From NCBI GenBank assembly GCA_964565615.1, contig CAZMFO010000001.1:19513-83512 (forward strand): a DNA stretch of 64,000 bases, given 5' to 3'. The notes beneath the pieces were generated by a model that saw only the letters and a program-made list of their open reading frames with translations, was not told where the DNA came from and made no database searches. The stretch comes from an uncultured Candidatus Saccharibacteria bacterium. Its GTDB lineage: Bacteria > Patescibacteriota > Saccharimonadia > Saccharimonadales > JAGQNJ01. Positions 2,602 through 8,762 of the stretch are shown in pieces (position 1 is the first letter of the stretch; the number at the start of each line of letters is the position of its first letter). The position numbers and the translations under genes were made by a program.

Positions 2602-2654
2602 ATTTGTTAATAGTCCCTGTTTACTATAAGATATTAATGTAAAGGCGTTCCATT

Positions 2655-2830
2655 TATGGATGAGTGGCTATCAACCACGAAGCTAGTGAGAAGAAAGCCG
2701 ATCGGCAAGTAGACCTCACCGGGCAAGCCCGTAATAGCCGTAAGTAAGAGCTAAAAAAGTGATCAGCACTTCTTTTAGAAATCGGATGGTACCGTCCTAG
2801 CGCGCTGGGATTCCGATAGCTAAAAGGAGT
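2655..2830 (+). promoter_or_regulatory. Candidate structured cis-regulatory leader, T-box-like and possibly Ile-specific, with SD-sequestering potential
   Basis: About 230 nt noncoding with nested helices (GGCTAT 2666-71 / ATAGCC 2734-39; GTGAG / CTCAC). 4-bp stem GTGG/CCAC (2664-2678) presents the loop CUAUCAA containing AUC-A. AGUGAGA at 2685-91. CCGUAA twice (2729-34, 2738-43). AAUCGGA-UGGUACC-GU...UCCGAU (2779-2817) resembles the T-box antiterminator: helix plus 7-nt UGGNACC bulge. CACUUCUUUU (2767-76) is complementary to SD AAAAGGAGUG (2822-31) and also to AAAAAAGUG (2753-61). Confidence 0.3.
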
Positions 2831-2846
2831 GCTTTTAATACAAAAT

Positions 2847-3455
2847 ATGGCTGTAGATAGAAGAAAACGAATTTTGATATATGGCGATTCCAATACATGG
2901 GGTCAAATGAACTTCGACGGACGTTATCCAGAAGAGAAGCAATGGTGTTGGATTCTTCAAGACAAACTCGGAGATTATTATCGTGTTGTTCAGGAGGGAT
3001 TGCCGGCGCGTGTTGCGGGAGCGTTTGAAACAAAAAAGCCAGAACTAAACGGCAGGGTGTCATTTGAGGTTGCGTATCGCACCGCATTACCTTTAGATTT
3101 TGTAATAGTTGCGCTAGGCACAAACGATCTTAAAGAGCGATACGCCAGATCGGCTTCACAGATTGTTGATGATATACTCTGGTATAAAGAGAAGATCAAA
3201 AAGATCAAAGACACAATGATTGTGAAGGTCCCAAAAGTTATATTTATTGCACCACCAAATTTTGTAAGTAAAGATGAATATTTTCAGGCAGATGAAGTAA
3301 AACGACAAGAAGTAATCATTGGCTTGCGACAAAAAGAACAATCTGTCATCGCTTTTAACGACCTTAAGCTAACTGATGACGGTGTTCATTTTTCAGAAAA
3401 TGCTCATCAAGTCGTTGCAGAAGAAATACATAAAGTAATCGAGGAGAGATGGTGA
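2847..3455 (+). CDS. SGNH/GDSL-family hydrolase (lipase/esterase-like)
   Basis: ILIYGDSNTWG (block I with Ser), GTNDL (block III), DGVHFS (block V DxxH). Start taken at ATG 2847; the track's GTG at 2829 overlaps the SD. Confidence 0.75.
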   Translation: MAVDRRKRILIYGDSNTWGQMNFDGRYPEEKQWCWILQDKLGDYYRVVQEGLPARVAGAFETKKPELNGRVSFEVAYRTALPLDFVIVALGTNDLKERYARSASQIVDDILWYKEKIKKIKDTMIVKVPKVIFIAPPNFVSKDEYFQADEVKRQEVIIGLRQKEQSVIAFNDLKLTDDGVHFSENAHQVVAEEIHKVIEERW

Positions 3456-3483: not shown

Positions 3484-3876
3484 ATGGCATTAATAAAAGT
3501 GTACACACTAGAACAGAATAAGGAATATTTACATAAAAGTGTTGCAAATACGGTTAAGCTGATAGGAGCAGCTGCGTTGAATGTCGATGAGTTGCCAACG
3601 ACGCCAGAAAATATTGAGATTGTTTATGGTGAGGGAATAGATCTGGTAGGCATAGACTTTATATTAGAGGTTATTGCCGTCAAGAGGCAAAATCAACAAG
3701 ATATTGCTAGGTCGATGATAAGAGGGCTAGGCGAGGTATTTCCAAATAAACTATTTAGCATATATTTTAACAATATATCAGAGTCAGGAATGGCTAATAC
3801 CCCTAGAGCTACAAGTTCTTCTACTCCAATAACTATGGAGGAGGCGATAATGCGTAGTAGAAGGGAGGAAATATGA
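3484..3876 (+). CDS. Hypothetical protein (130 aa)
   Basis: Strong SD AAAGGAG 7 nt upstream. Its stop overlaps the ATG of ileS-start copy A (ATGA), implying an ancestral coupled junction with ileS. Confidence 0.55.
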   Translation: MALIKVYTLEQNKEYLHKSVANTVKLIGAAALNVDELPTTPENIEIVYGEGIDLVGIDFILEVIAVKRQNQQDIARSMIRGLGEVFPNKLFSIYFNNISESGMANTPRATSSSTPITMEEAIMRSRREEI

Positions 3877-3932
3877 AGTTTAAGCACGGAACAAGGCGTA
3901 GGGCGTTAGAATACGAAAAAGATTGGGCGAAG
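3861..3932 (+). repeat. Direct repeat copy A: duplicated SD plus first 20 codons of ileS
   Basis: 3873-3932 matches 4438-4497 at 58/60 nt. The upstream AGGAGGAA SD-like segment is also shared. Confidence 0.9.
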
Positions 3933-3980
3933 ACTCGTCCTAGGGAAAAATATGGCACAGCGAATAATCATACCTACTGA
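3873..3980 (+). pseudogene. Remnant 5' fragment of ileS (MKFKHGTRRRALEYEKDWAK + 15 unrelated codons, then stop); potentially a translated 35-aa leader peptide
   Basis: First 20 codons are identical to the IleRS N-terminus, then the sequence diverges. It overlaps the start of the nuclease ORF by 29 nt. Confidence 0.5.
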
Positions 3981-4329
3981 TATAAATCCACGACCAGAGC
4001 GTTTTGAGATTGAGGCTGCGAGTATTGTAGCGGAATATTTTGGTGTAGATGCAACTTTTCTTGTTAGAAAAAATGGAAGTACTCCAGACTGCGAAATCAA
4101 TGGCATAGAATGGGAGATAAAAAGTCCATTAGGTCGAGACAAGCATGTGATTGAAAATCAAATAAAACGCGCCTCTAGACAATCACTTTATATCATTATT
4201 GATGCAAGACATTGTAGGTTGCATATCGCTAAGATTCGCTCGCATTTGAAGCATAATGTATCTTTAAGAAAACATCTTAAGAGCGTGTTACTTATTAATA
4301 AGCATGGAAGTGTTGAGGTTATCAAATGA
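3952..4329 (+). CDS. Small PD-(D/E)xK nuclease-fold protein, Hjc / restriction-endonuclease-like
   Basis: PERFEIEAASIVAEYFGVDATFLVRKNGSTPDCEINGIEWEIKSP gives E...PD...ExK in Hjc-like spacing (ER ... GxxV.R..GS.PD ... ExKS). 125 aa. Lies between the two ileS-start repeats. Confidence 0.5.
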   Translation: MAQRIIIPTDINPRPERFEIEAASIVAEYFGVDATFLVRKNGSTPDCEINGIEWEIKSPLGRDKHVIENQIKRASRQSLYIIIDARHCRLHIAKIRSHLKHNVSLRKHLKSVLLINKHGSVEVIK

Positions 4330-4348
4330 AAGTATATCTAAAAAAAGG

Positions 4349-4383
4349 AACCGATGCTGTGCATATTCATCACTGCATCGGTT
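4349..4383 (+). terminator. Hairpin (AACCGATGC...GCATCGGTT, 9-bp stem plus 3 more pairs) downstream of the nuclease ORF; weak U-tract
   Basis: Inverted repeat read directly. Confidence 0.3.
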
Positions 4384-4423
4384 CGCTGTTACGAATTATA
4401 TCAAACAAAAGTGTAAAAGTCAA

Positions 4424-4497
4424 TCAAGGAGGAAGTGATGAAGTTTAAGCACGGAACAAGGCGTAGGGCACTAGAATACGAAAAAGATTGGGCGAAG
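4424..4497 (+). repeat. Direct repeat copy B: functional SD plus start of ileS
   Basis: See copy A. Confidence 0.9.
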
Positions 4498-7335
4498 CGT
4501 TGGAAGGAAAACAAAACTTTTGAAAAGTCTGTAGACCAGCGCCCAGAAGACAACAAATGGGTGTTTTATGATGGCCCGCCATTTTTGACCGGTACACCAC
4601 ATCACGGACATTTGCTGGTATCAACAGTAAAAGATACTATGGGTCGATACCACACTATGAAAGGCCAGCGAGTTGAAAGACGATGGGGCTGGGATTGTCA
4701 TGGTTTGCCGGCTGAAGTCTTTGTTGAAAAACAGCTTGGTATCAAGAATAAAAAAGAAATTGGCACCAAAATTAGCATTTCTGAATATGTTAAACAATGT
4801 CGTTCGGCTATGGTAAAAACTGGTACGGAGTGGGAGGACACGATTGAGCGTCTGGGTCGCTGGGTTGAGTTTGAAGGCGCCTACAAAACCATGGACAAAG
4901 AGTACATGGAGAGTGTTTGGTGGGCGTTTAAGGAACTTTACGATAACGGCAAAATCTATGAGGGCGAAAAGATTTTGGTATATTGCACCAAAGATGCAAC
5001 ACCAATTAGCAAGTCCGAAGTAGCTATGGAAAACAGCTATCAAATGGATACGGACCCGAGCGTTTATGTATATTTCAAATTAGAAGATAGTGTCTCAAGT
5101 GAGCAGGCTACTGACGATCAGACTTACATGCTAGCATGGACAACTACACCATGGACACTTCCGGCCAATGTGGCAGTGGCTGTCAATCCAAAGATTGAGT
5201 ATTCTTTGATCGAGCACGAGGGCAAGAAGTTTTATGTTGCTACCGAGGCTGTAGAGCGGGTAATGCAAGACGCCAAGAAACAACCTTTAGATTATAAGTT
5301 GCTTAAAAAGATAAAAGGCAAAGAGCTTGTTGGTAAAAGATACGAGCCATTGTTTGAGAACCACGGCCCAGATGCTCATAGAGTGCTTTTGGCTGATTTT
5401 GTAACAGCAACTGATGGAACTGGTTTGGTTCACGAAGCGCCGGCCTATGGTGAAGAAGATTATGAGCTTTGCAAAAAAGAGGGAGTACCGGTTGTTTCGA
5501 TTGTAGACGAAAATGGCATCTATACCTCCGGCCGTTGGCTAGGTGAAAATATCTGGGAAATCAACAAAACTATCGCCAAGACTCTGGTGGAAGAGGGCAA
5601 GGCGCTTAAGGTTGAGTATATTCGGCATGAGTATCCGCATTGTCATCGTTGTGGCACCAAGTTGATGTATCGGGCGCACCCGAGTTGGTTTATGGATATT
5701 CAATCGCAAAAGAAAGAAATGCTAGAGGAAAACGCCAAGACCAATTGGGTGCCAGACAATCTACGCACTGGGCGGTTTCATAACATCATTGAACAAGCTC
5801 CAGATTGGAACTTATCTCGTGATCGCTATTGGGCAACGCCAATCCCTGTTTGGAGAGGTGAGCGCAACGATGGAACTGAGGTTATTAAGGTTTTTGGTAG
5901 CTATCAAGAATTTGAAGAGTTTACCGGCAAGTACATGGATGACTATCACTTGCCAGAAGTGATGAATGTCACCTTTGAGTTGGATGGTGTGCAGATGCAT
6001 CACATTGGCAAAGTTTTGGATTGTTGGTTTGAAAGTGGCTCAATGCCGTTTGCTCAATTCCACTATCCGTTTGAAAACAAGGCCAAGTTTGAGAGTATGT
6101 TCCCGGCAGATTTTATTATTGAGGCCATTGATCAGACTCGCGGATGGTTTTATAGCCTGATGGCAGTCAATGTTGGACTGTTTGGCAAGGCTCCATGGAA
6201 GAACTTGATCTGTACGGGGTTTATCAATGCGTCAGATGGTAAGAAAATGAGTAAAAAGCTCAAAAACTACACTAATCCGATGGATTTGATAGATCAATAT
6301 TCAGCAGATAGTTTTAGGTTTTTGATGCTTTCTAGTCCTCTAACTAATGGGGAAAACTTTAGTTTAGCTGATAAAGATGTCGGCGTAATTGCCAGAAAAC
6401 TTAGCATGGTTTGGAATATGTACGATTTCTTTACTATGTATGCCGAAGTTGACGGCTGGGAGTTTGATCCAACTAAACCATTTGGGTTAGACCCAAATAA
6501 GCTAGATAATTCGCTTGATGCCTGGATAGTTTCGAGGCTACATCAGCTGAATAAAGAAGTTACCGAGCAATTGGATAGTTATGATATAGCAAAAGCAATC
6601 GAGCCAATTTTACCATTTGTTGATGATGCATCTAACTGGTATGTAAGGCGAAGTCGCCGTCGTTTTTGGAAGAGTGAGGACGATGACGATAAATCAGATG
6701 CTTACAGGACATTGCATTATGTTTTATTAAAACTTGCAGTTATTCTAGCGCCATTTACGCCTTTTCTAGCAGAAGAACTGTATCAAAAACTTGGCGGAGG
6801 GGTAGAGTCGGTGCATTTGCTGGATTGGCCAGCAAATTATTCTGTTGATCAGACCATTTTGGACGAGATGGCAACTGTGCGTAAGTATATCAACGATGGT
6901 TTGGGCCAACGAGCCGAAGCTGGTATCAAGGTGCGTCAACCATTACTTAGCGTCAAGATACCCGGTATGGGTAAAAAGGTTGGTTTTGGGTCAATCCTGA
7001 TGGACGAACTTAATGTTAAGCAGGTTGTTGTTGGGAAAGAAGTAGCAATCGACACCAAGATTACAAAAGAGCTTAAACAAGAAGGCCTAATGCGTGAAGT
7101 AATTAGGCTTGTACAAAATGCTCGCAAGCAGGCCGAACTTAATGTAGATGAGCGTATTAACCTTAGCTTGCTAACTAACGATAAAGATCTAAAAGAAGCA
7201 ATACAGCAATATAGTCAGATTATAAAAACCGAAACCTTGGCTACTAATCTTTCTGTTGATAAAATTACAGATAATCACAATAAATTAAGTATAGATGGGG
7301 CAGAAATAGCCATAATGATAAAAGTAAATAAATAA
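4438..7335 (+). CDS. ileS: Isoleucyl-tRNA synthetase
   Basis: HIGH motif PHHGHLL, KMSKS motif KMSKKL, editing domain region. 965 aa. SD AAGGAGGA 5 nt upstream of ATG 4438. Confidence 0.95.
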   Translation: MKFKHGTRRRALEYEKDWAKRWKENKTFEKSVDQRPEDNKWVFYDGPPFLTGTPHHGHLLVSTVKDTMGRYHTMKGQRVERRWGWDCHGLPAEVFVEKQLGIKNKKEIGTKISISEYVKQCRSAMVKTGTEWEDTIERLGRWVEFEGAYKTMDKEYMESVWWAFKELYDNGKIYEGEKILVYCTKDATPISKSEVAMENSYQMDTDPSVYVYFKLEDSVSSEQATDDQTYMLAWTTTPWTLPANVAVAVNPKIEYSLIEHEGKKFYVATEAVERVMQDAKKQPLDYKLLKKIKGKELVGKRYEPLFENHGPDAHRVLLADFVTATDGTGLVHEAPAYGEEDYELCKKEGVPVVSIVDENGIYTSGRWLGENIWEINKTIAKTLVEEGKALKVEYIRHEYPHCHRCGTKLMYRAHPSWFMDIQSQKKEMLEENAKTNWVPDNLRTGRFHNIIEQAPDWNLSRDRYWATPIPVWRGERNDGTEVIKVFGSYQEFEEFTGKYMDDYHLPEVMNVTFELDGVQMHHIGKVLDCWFESGSMPFAQFHYPFENKAKFESMFPADFIIEAIDQTRGWFYSLMAVNVGLFGKAPWKNLICTGFINASDGKKMSKKLKNYTNPMDLIDQYSADSFRFLMLSSPLTNGENFSLADKDVGVIARKLSMVWNMYDFFTMYAEVDGWEFDPTKPFGLDPNKLDNSLDAWIVSRLHQLNKEVTEQLDSYDIAKAIEPILPFVDDASNWYVRRSRRRFWKSEDDDDKSDAYRTLHYVLLKLAVILAPFTPFLAEELYQKLGGGVESVHLLDWPANYSVDQTILDEMATVRKYINDGLGQRAEAGIKVRQPLLSVKIPGMGKKVGFGSILMDELNVKQVVVGKEVAIDTKITKELKQEGLMREVIRLVQNARKQAELNVDERINLSLLTNDKDLKEAIQQYSQIIKTETLATNLSVDKITDNHNKLSIDGAEIAIMIKVNK

Positions 7336-7781: not shown

Positions 7782-8762
7782 ATGTTTGATGCAGAAAATA
7801 CCCCTGAAATTATTAGGGAGCATATGGAGTCCGACGAATATCAAGAGGGACTTATTCGAGACATAGAACTAACTAATAGAATAAAGGCTGGCTATACTCA
7901 GGCGGAGCCAACTGATGAAAATCCTAACCCAAAAATTGACGAGGGTATTTTAGATGATGATGCACGCGAGGCTTTGAGCGAGCTGAGTGGGGTTTACCAA
8001 CCATTAATGCGTAAAATACTAAACAAAGAATACCGCAAAGCAAAACAAGCCTCGCCTATGATTAGTAAAGATGATTTAGAGCAAGAAGCGTTCTGTGGAT
8101 TATTTAGAGCATCTTTAGCATGGGACCCGGAAAGAGGAAATGGTAGCTTTACTAGTTATGCTAGGCAATCCATTTGGGGTAGTGTTCGCAGATATGTTGA
8201 CGAAGTTAAAGGGGCGGTCAGGGTCCCCGCTTTGATGAGGAACAAGATTGATAGGGCAAGGAATACCTATTGGTCTATTTATGGCACAGAAGAACATTTA
8301 CCCATGAGAGAGCGTTTAGCTACAGCACTAGGCACTTCAATAGAGTGGGTAGTTGAGATTATGCAAGTTGAGGCTATGACTGATCAGATGGGTTCAATAG
8401 ATCAGGGCTACTTTAGGGACGATCGCGATCAACATAGTACTTACGGTAAGGGCGAAGGACTATGGCATCCAATTGATCCATCAGCTAGCGAAATGCAAAC
8501 TGTTGAAGAAGGGTTGATAATCAGTGAAATTAAACGGGTTGTTAACTCGGTGTTGGATGAAGCTAAAGGAGAAGGATTAACAGACCGACATATGAAAGTT
8601 ATTCAGATGAGATTTTTACGACCTGACAATGAAAGATTAACTTTAGAAGAAACGGGCAGGGTTTTAGGCATTACTAGAGAGAGTGCGCGTCAAATTGAAG
8701 CAAAAGCCTTAGCCAAACTTAGACATCCAAGAGTTAGGGATAAGTTAGAAGCATTATTGTAA
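7782..8762 (+). CDS. RNA polymerase sigma-70 family factor (RpoD/SigA-like; regions 2, 3 and 4 recognizable)
   Basis: Region 2 LEQEAFCGLFRASLAWDPERGNGSFTSYARQSIWGSVRRYV. Region 4 HTH LTLEETGRVLGITRESARQIEAKALAKLRHP. Confidence 0.8.
   Translation: MFDAENTPEIIREHMESDEYQEGLIRDIELTNRIKAGYTQAEPTDENPNPKIDEGILDDDAREALSELSGVYQPLMRKILNKEYRKAKQASPMISKDDLEQEAFCGLFRASLAWDPERGNGSFTSYARQSIWGSVRRYVDEVKGAVRVPALMRNKIDRARNTYWSIYGTEEHLPMRERLATALGTSIEWVVEIMQVEAMTDQMGSIDQGYFRDDRDQHSTYGKGEGLWHPIDPSASEMQTVEEGLIISEIKRVVNSVLDEAKGEGLTDRHMKVIQMRFLRPDNERLTLEETGRVLGITRESARQIEAKALAKLRHPRVRDKLEALL

Follow-up and report, generated by a model that had tools for sequence, protein, structure and literature searches.

The 64,000-nucleotide stretch of DNA analysed here (the window), from an uncultured Candidatus Saccharibacteria bacterium, carries at positions 2661-2839 a structured leader that lies ahead of a GDSL-family hydrolase gene and of ileS, the gene for isoleucyl-tRNA synthetase (IleRS). 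We interpret this leader as an isoleucine-specific T-box riboswitch, one member of a leader family of Saccharibacteria ileS genes, which probably attenuates transcription through a competition between its Stem III and a terminator. We regard the identification as an isoleucine T-box as secure at the level of sequence and structure, because the AAGxG-Stem III-AA motif and a G-U wobble match the discriminators of characterised T-boxes; the output is most likely transcription attenuation rather than sequestration of a Shine-Dalgarno (SD) sequence. A preliminary description, made from the letters of the window alone, had proposed a T-box with the isoleucine specifier AUC on a short stem, and this proposal is borne out by covariation across the family, by the invariance of the AUC and by linkage to ileS. 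The features it had read from the sequence (the A1 helix with its bulge, the CUAUCAA hairpin and the alternative pairings) all lie where it had placed them (Table 1).

The leader family upstream of ileS

The window was compared with 80 Saccharibacteria ileS loci (L001-L080). A search by nhmmer with the window leader retrieved a homologue upstream of ileS and on the same strand in 67 of these loci, and a covariance model (R1; 58 family sequences, 175 positions) found exactly one leader copy, again upstream of ileS and on its strand, in 71 of the 80. R1 has a single match in the window, at 2661-2839, which at 155.8 bits is among the best-scoring family members, while the sole other match in 937 kb (22.5 bits, E = 0.15) is on the opposite strand and partly overlaps the leader of L003. 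The leader directly adjoins ileS in 37 loci and is separated from it elsewhere by 230-2800 nt of other genes, and it is therefore a leader of ileS and not of the GDSL hydrolases; a tie to the hydrolases, which the preliminary description had also considered, gives way to the occurrence ahead of ileS in 71 loci, which favours a T-box. Nine of the 80 loci gave no R1 match, most of them with upstream stretches that are short or filled with cargo. L020, L054 and L066 have at least 2 kb upstream of ileS, and in this sequence the R1 search found no leader (in the latter two, ileS directly follows another gene); the T-box appears to have been lost in these lineages.

Covariation in the orthologous leaders supports the structure first drawn from the window. 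We computed it on an unbiased MAFFT alignment of 63 homologues, with pairing partners slid by 1-3 columns as the control: standard pairs occupy 89% of cells, against 37-46% in the slid controls, 35 of 42 pairs have changed on both sides, and all helices covary. RNAalifold recovered Stem I, Stem II, Stem IIA, A1 and A2 de novo. In the family alignment the conserved sequence starts near 2661, and every position that is invariant in the family is intact in the window copy. The + strand of the leader folds better than its shuffles (z = -2.3); a structure on the minus strand was set aside, as its fold is poorer (z = -2.05) and every homologue lies on the ileS strand.

Table 1. Features of the leader and of the genes behind it, in window coordinates
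Feature	Position	Strand	Details
Small 5' hairpin	2650..2659	+	CCAUUUAUGG; just 5' of the AUGAG that precedes Stem I
Ultrashort Stem I	2662..2680	+	GUGG (2664-2667) / CCAC (2675-2678); 7-nt loop CUAUCAA
Stem II	2686..2719	+	GUGAG (2686-2690) / CUCAC (2715-2719)
Stem IIA, F-box-like element and IIB 3' strand	2720..2738	+	CGGG (2720-2723) / CCCG (2728-2731); CCGUAA (2729-2734); GC (2737-2738)
Discriminator, 5' half	2746..2780	+	Purines AAGAG (2746-2750); Stem III (2751-2778; CUAAAAAAGUG / CACUUCUUUUAG); AA (2779-2780)
T-box (antiterminator-type) element	2781..2817	+	A1 AUCGGA (2781-2786) / UCCGAU (2812-2817); bulge UGGUACC (2787-2793); A2 (2794-2811)
Terminator-like compound hairpin	2766..2836	+	Base helix GCACUUCUUUUAG (2766-2778) / CUAAAAGGAGUGC (2820-2832), then UUUU (2833-2836)
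GDSL-family hydrolase gene	2847..3455	+	ATG at 2847; first gene 3' of the leader; Pfam PF00657 and PF13472
130-amino-acid open reading frame (hyp130)	3484..3876	+	No Pfam family; stop overlaps the first copy of the ileS start (ATGA)
Insertion at the ileS start	3873..4437	+	61-nt copy of the ileS 5' end (3873-3933), then a CdiA_C-like open reading frame of 125 amino acids (3952-4329; Pfam PF18451)
ileS (IleRS, type 2)	4438..7335	+	Pfam tRNA-synt_1, Anticodon_1 and DUF5915; amino acid the same as that of the specifier

Stem I is reduced to a hairpin of four base pairs and seven loop nucleotides, without the distal module that binds the tRNA elbow. Its loop presents AUC (2670-2672) followed by the purine A2673, and GA dinucleotides flank the helix on both sides (2662-2663 and 2679-2680). 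Among the 58 sequences the AUC is invariant and the next A at least 90% conserved; all four pairs of the stem covary (97.6% of cells pair), one of them being UA in 33 sequences and CG in 27. An isoleucine codon with a conserved purine after it agrees with the gene, ileS, that the element precedes in 71 of 80 loci. The small 5' hairpin may be the 5' boundary of the leader: in roughly two thirds of 70 homologues (a count taken from the fold listing) a hairpin, though unrelated in sequence, ends at this place, and the window copy is weak, at -3.1 kcal/mol for a 32-nt stretch. By eye, some other loci seem to possess a short closing helix (AUCC...GGAU, for example in L074 and L077-L079) or an additional hairpin that separates Stem I from Stem II (L007, L033, L052, L053, L061, L062 and L067), or to combine the two; since hairpins and closing helices around Stem I vary in this way, Stem I has structural sub-variants.

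Stem II carries purine motifs of the S-turn type, GAAGAAA (2690-2696) and AGUAGA (2708-2713), within which AAGAA and A-UAGA are invariant or nearly so in the family, and its five basal pairs all covary (92.7% of cells pair). The AGUGA that had been likened to an AG box is instead part of the 5' strand of this stem. Stem IIA covaries as well, and it is part of a IIA/B pseudoknot with an F-box: of two F-box-like CCGUAA elements in the preliminary description, the first is conserved and the second is not. For the IIB helix, pairing within a homologue's own sequence averages 3.6 bp, against 2.35 bp across sequences, a value that none of 2000 register-constrained permutations reached, and many distinct types of compensatory helix occur among the homologues. 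The window copy of IIB has only 2 bp (GC/GC), and a comparison of the longest helix with shuffles was uninformative about the pseudoknot (3.7 vs 3.2 bp).

The discriminator is complete in the window, with AAGAG, Stem III, AA and the G2794-U2811 wobble all present. The motifs that flank Stem III, AAG-G and G-AA, are invariant or conserved to at least 90%, and the stem itself pairs in 92.2% of cells, with seven of its eight pairs changed on both sides. GAUGG-A-C is invariant in 63 sequences, and the bulge GAUGGUACC between A1 and A2 is invariant or nearly so; A1 pairs in all cells (four of six pairs covary) and A2 in 93%, and 45 of the 63 sequences close A2 with a G-U wobble. Characterised T-boxes have discriminators with the same features, an RRRxG-Stem III-AA motif and a G-U wobble beneath A2 (PMC7583486), and a RAG linker has been described for them as well (PMC11297988). 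At the fourth position of the bulge, L014, L067 and L069 have A in place of U (UGGAACC), and L065 reads UGGUAAC. The sequences of the UGGAACC members predict either a different discriminator base (73) in their tRNA-Ile or a tolerated mismatch.

Existing models see little of this family. Scanned at gathering thresholds, the window gave no Rfam hit at all. At an E-value threshold a single Rfam family matches the leader, the T-box RF00230 (2589-2818, 29.2 bits, E = 6.8e-5), so that a covariance search, the check that the preliminary description had suggested, does single out the T-box, though at a score that falls short of gathering; it is also the best match window-wide when the 64 kb are set against all 4227 families (E = 0.013). 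Among relatives, two scored 36-39 bits and three had no hit at E <= 1. The alignment to the model locates the poor fit in Stem I, and the T-box element region aligns to RF00230 positions 185-219. Rfam aligns 2589-2660 as a long Stem I, a candidate that we rejected since this region is unconserved in the homologues and several of the pairs are non-canonical. These results show that the Rfam T-box model fails to detect the leader family even in the Saccharibacteria loci tested.

The output helix and the proposed switch

The 3' end of the leader holds two mutually exclusive pairings. As had been noticed at the outset, CACUUCUUUU (2767-2776) has two possible partners, AAAAAAGUG on its upstream side and AAAAGGAGUG on its downstream side, and both pairings covary. 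The second of them is part of a base helix of 13 bp which encloses an intact A1/A2 and takes as its 5' strand the loop and 3' strand of Stem III, and the resulting hairpin is the minimum free energy (MFE) fold of the window copy. The family consensus of the 3' strand is CAAAAGAGGUGAU. The base helix pairs in 94.1% of cells, and in 123 cells both sides have changed (the MAFFT alignment, A1 counted in, gives 90.6% pairing); L052, L056 and L062 alter Stem III and the base helix coherently; the comparison of these sequences indicates that selection has maintained both alternative helices. Directly 3' of the base helix stands a U-tract, a run of 3-7 U with two invariant positions and a third conserved to at least 90%. 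The preliminary description had found no intrinsic terminator here, a statement at odds with the long helix and the conserved U-tract, which together are terminator-like.

The energetics of the homologues point to the same competition. Stem III alone has a median of -6.9 kcal/mol, and adding the 3' strand tips the balance towards the terminator state, by a median of 7.9 kcal/mol. The MFE fold of the complete 3' domain keeps A1 and forms the base helix in 58 of 59 evaluable homologues, and with the 3' strand removed all 59 form Stem III and A1. Because A1 is kept together with the base helix and Stem III returns without the 3' strand, the switch would lie between Stem III and the terminator base; the alternative helix excludes Stem III, and not A1/A2. 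A canonical terminator built from the 3' strands of A1/A2 was rejected on the grounds that A1 and A2 stay paired in the MFE folds, no search dedicated to it having been run.

We infer how such a leader would work, from tRNA binding to termination and the direction of the switch, by homology with characterised T-boxes and from the pairings described above. The anticodon of tRNA-Ile(GAU) would pair with AUC-A (2670-2673) in the 7-nt loop, a contact presumably supported by the S-turn motifs of Stem II and the IIA/B pseudoknot. An uncharged NCCA end would pair with UGGU (2787-2790) of the bulge within the discriminator formed by AAGAG, Stem III, AA, A1 and A2. At the output, 2820-2832 is predicted to pair with the loop and 3' strand of Stem III, extending A1 into a hairpin that ends in the U-tract. 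Binding of uncharged tRNA, which would need Stem III docked on the discriminator, may then lock Stem III, leaving the 3' strand single-stranded and allowing read-through into the GDSL gene, hyp130 and ileS; without uncharged tRNA, the 3' strand would displace the 5' strand of Stem III and transcription would stop. An antiterminator without Stem III does not bind tRNA appreciably (PMC7583486), and when the tRNA is charged, undocking of the linker is seen and Stem III shifts away (PMC12647780).

The first alternative to be weighed is a translational T-box, in which the helix 2766-2778 / 2820-2832 sequesters the SD of the GDSL gene, AAAGGAG (2823-2829), and uncharged tRNA-Ile frees it, as in actinobacterial ileS leaders; the preliminary description had favoured an SD-sequestering platform of this kind. 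AAAGGAG is the sole SD-like sequence before the GDSL ATG at 2847, and the base helix as a whole looks like an SD:anti-SD duplex, the family consensus of its 3' strand (AAAAGAGGUGAU) resembling an extended SD and its 5' strand (AUCACUUCUUUU, AUCACUUCUUUUGG) lying close to the 3' tail of 16S rRNA. In the literature, moreover, ultrashort Stem I has so far gone with control of translation and long Stem I with control of transcription (PMC7583486). Against this, 17 nt separate the end of the GGAG from the GDSL ATG, more than a good SD would have, and the conserved U-tract follows the helix immediately. Of the 37 loci whose leader directly adjoins ileS, 36 have a separate SD beyond the U-tract and outside the helix, with a median distance of 6 nt to the start codon; the helix itself stops 18-55 nt short of the ileS start. 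Because the U-tract follows and the SD lies downstream, the base helix is terminator-like and not an SD sequestrator, and we consider a translational T-box unlikely.

A dual mechanism, confined to the window copy, ranks next among the improbable alternatives: the leader would attenuate transcription, and the freed 3' strand would in addition serve the GDSL gene as a weak SD or standby site. The window offers no other SD between the U-tract and the ATG at 2847, whereas its closest relative, L001, has GGAGGA downstream of the U-tract; however, the 17-nt spacing is long, and other loci with GDSL cargo (L021, L025 and L057) have SD-like sequences of their own after the U-tract. Least probable, to the point that we give it little credence, is a relic that no longer regulates after the insertion of cargo, or a conserved structured 5' untranslated region that does not sense tRNA: ileS does lie 1.6 kb away behind three open reading frames and an inserted cassette, and the three leaderless relatives (L020, L054 and L066) indicate that the leader is dispensable, but the window copy is among the best in the family with all its invariant positions intact, these positions are exactly the tRNA-contacting ones of characterised T-boxes, and selection has kept both alternative helices.

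Several observations weigh against the T-box that attenuates transcription, the reading that we prefer. The terminator is atypical, with an AU-rich base helix enclosing a structured domain of about 40 nt, a simple terminator pattern scan does not call the hairpin 2766-2836, and the U-run amounts to only 4 U in the window and 3 in the closest relative. A1 and A2 persist in both states, so that the coupling of tRNA to the switch is a step that we infer. The RF00230 score lies far under the gathering threshold of 93 bits, in the family as a whole (29-39 bits) as in the window. A search for tRNA-Ile genes, whose anticodon (GAU) and base 73 would have to complement the specifier and UGGU, found none in the window or in loci L001-L060. 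In the window copy the only SD is the one in the 3' strand, and the GDSL gene may have a translational component to its control. Finally, the leader lies about 1.6 kb from ileS in the window, and the intervening stretch includes a CdiA_C-like cassette with a hairpin of its own; because this cassette is inserted at the ileS start, control of ileS by the leader is uncertain in the window.

The ileS locus and its cargo genes

The leader sits inside a gap of 245 nt between an open reading frame of 100 amino acids (2299-2601) and the GDSL-family hydrolase gene. In the loci compared, the leader-ileS interval is a hotspot of unrelated cargo genes on the same strand, many of which run into the ileS start. 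GDSL genes occupy it in the window and also in L021, L025, L057 and L078, in which four their open reading frames run into the ileS start; elsewhere the cargo includes an inositol monophosphatase, a T5orf172 protein, a DUF4145 protein, a NUDIX hydrolase, GNAT acetyltransferases (one fused to a SET domain), and an EcoRI-like methylase followed by a GmrSD/HNH nuclease. The preliminary description had joined GDSL, hyp130 and ileS into one unit, and the 37 relatives in which the leader adjoins ileS, together with the four that have a GDSL gene in between, agree with it. The comparison of loci supports the view that GDSL and hyp130 are cargo inserted into what was formerly a unit of leader and ileS.

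A further insertion separates this cargo from ileS in the window. The first 61 nt of ileS are present twice (3873-3933 and 4438-4498), flanking an insertion of 565 bp that contains, alongside the CdiA_C-like open reading frame, a near-perfect hairpin at about 4349-4386. L061 has a homologue of this open reading frame, 74% identical, in its leader-ileS interval. In L018 and L020 the 5' end of ileS is also duplicated, over shorter stretches (26 and 29 nt) that lie 532 and 828 nt upstream, respectively. The pattern in the window, L018, L020 and L061 suggests recurrent insertion at the ileS start codon. On the minus strand, at 4423-4395, we noted a near-consensus promoter of the sigma-70 type (TTGACT-17 nt-TATAAT, preceded by TG; 11 of 12 matches), which faces away from ileS and into the inserted cassette.

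The window IleRS is 64-84% identical to its best genome matches, all of them from Saccharibacteria (TM7), and has a DUF5915 domain at its C-terminus. In a PDB search its best matches were 8c8v/8c8u and cytoplasmic IleRS entries, at about 650-675 bits, with the Staphylococcus aureus enzyme (1ffy) at 330 bits; we take the matched entries to be of type 2, and the window enzyme presumably has this eukaryote-like form. Farther downstream, within a sigma-70 gene, 8108-8229 (+) gave a weak match to the Rfam ALIL pseudoknot (20.2 bits, gathering 50, E = 0.51) that is most likely due to chance.

Relation to known T-boxes and significance

The leader family shares its parts with two groups of known T-boxes and combines them differently. 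Its nearest counterparts are the ultrashort-Stem-I ileS T-boxes of Actinobacteria (M. tuberculosis, M. smegmatis and N. farcinica; 'class II' of TBDB), with which it was compared through their published descriptions: both precede the same gene, ileS, and have a Stem I that lacks the distal tRNA-elbow-binding (IDTM) module and retains only the specifier region, a Stem II with an S-turn and a IIA/B pseudoknot, a purine linker (RAG / RRRxG), Stem III followed by AA, and a UGGN bulge between A1 and A2. Beyond the difference in host phylum, the actinobacterial elements act on translation, through a sequestrator that excludes the antisequestrator in a large-scale refolding (PMC12647780), whereas the Saccharibacteria leader has a U-tract after its 3' helix and the SD outside it, and keeps A1/A2 while Stem III is the competing helix. 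The Saccharibacteria leaders may share ancestry with the ileS T-boxes of actinobacterial hosts, and the SD:anti-SD look of the base helix may be left over from a translational sequestrator in their ancestry.

With the transcriptional T-boxes of Firmicutes (RF00230; for example B. subtilis tyrS and glyQS), the family has in common the T-box sequence, a specifier followed by a purine, Stem II with IIA/B, Stem III, a terminator or terminator-like hairpin with U-tract as the off state, and a position ahead of the synthetase gene that matches the specifier. In contrast to the four-pair hairpin of the Saccharibacteria leader, which presents the specifier in its terminal loop, the canonical Stem I of Firmicutes is long, with a K-turn, an internal specifier loop, an AG bulge and a distal loop, features that have been treated as generally required for transcriptional T-boxes (PMC7583486). 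The canonical Firmicutes terminator draws its 5' strand from the 3' strands of A1/A2 (PMC7583486), whereas that of the Saccharibacteria leader comes from the 3' strand of Stem III. Also unlike RF00230 T-boxes, members of the family either score at the low level given above or are missed. Judged from its sequences, the Saccharibacteria family thus appears to join an ultrashort Stem I to a terminator, with a different competing helix.

The short-Stem-I model of TBDB was searched only in Actinobacteria genomes and in sequences that the class I model had already detected. The preliminary description had remarked that T-boxes are little documented in lineages like the Candidate Phyla Radiation (CPR), and in keeping with this our full-text literature searches returned no paper that joins a T-box with Saccharibacteria, TM7, Patescibacteria or the CPR. 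Whether the leaders amount to a distinct T-box class, defined by attenuation from an ultrashort Stem I and a 'Stem III lock' that keeps A1/A2, and constituting the first T-box family of the CPR/Patescibacteria, is in our view evenly balanced.

Saccharibacteria live as epibionts and draw building blocks from their hosts. If our reading is correct, a sensor of uncharged tRNA-Ile ahead of ileS, reading the supply of isoleucine, would be among the first concrete regulatory devices in Patescibacteria, a group in which regulation has been called virtually unknown (PMC11665869). Attenuation from an ultrashort Stem I would also contradict the view that transcriptional T-boxes need a Stem I that binds the tRNA elbow, and the family would offer a natural test of whether a transcriptional T-box can work without this contact and of whether the docking of Stem III alone can act as a switch, as single-molecule work on the M. 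tuberculosis ileS T-box has hinted (PMC12647780). At about 180 nt, the leader is in addition a compact candidate regulatory part for genetic tools in Saccharibacteria.

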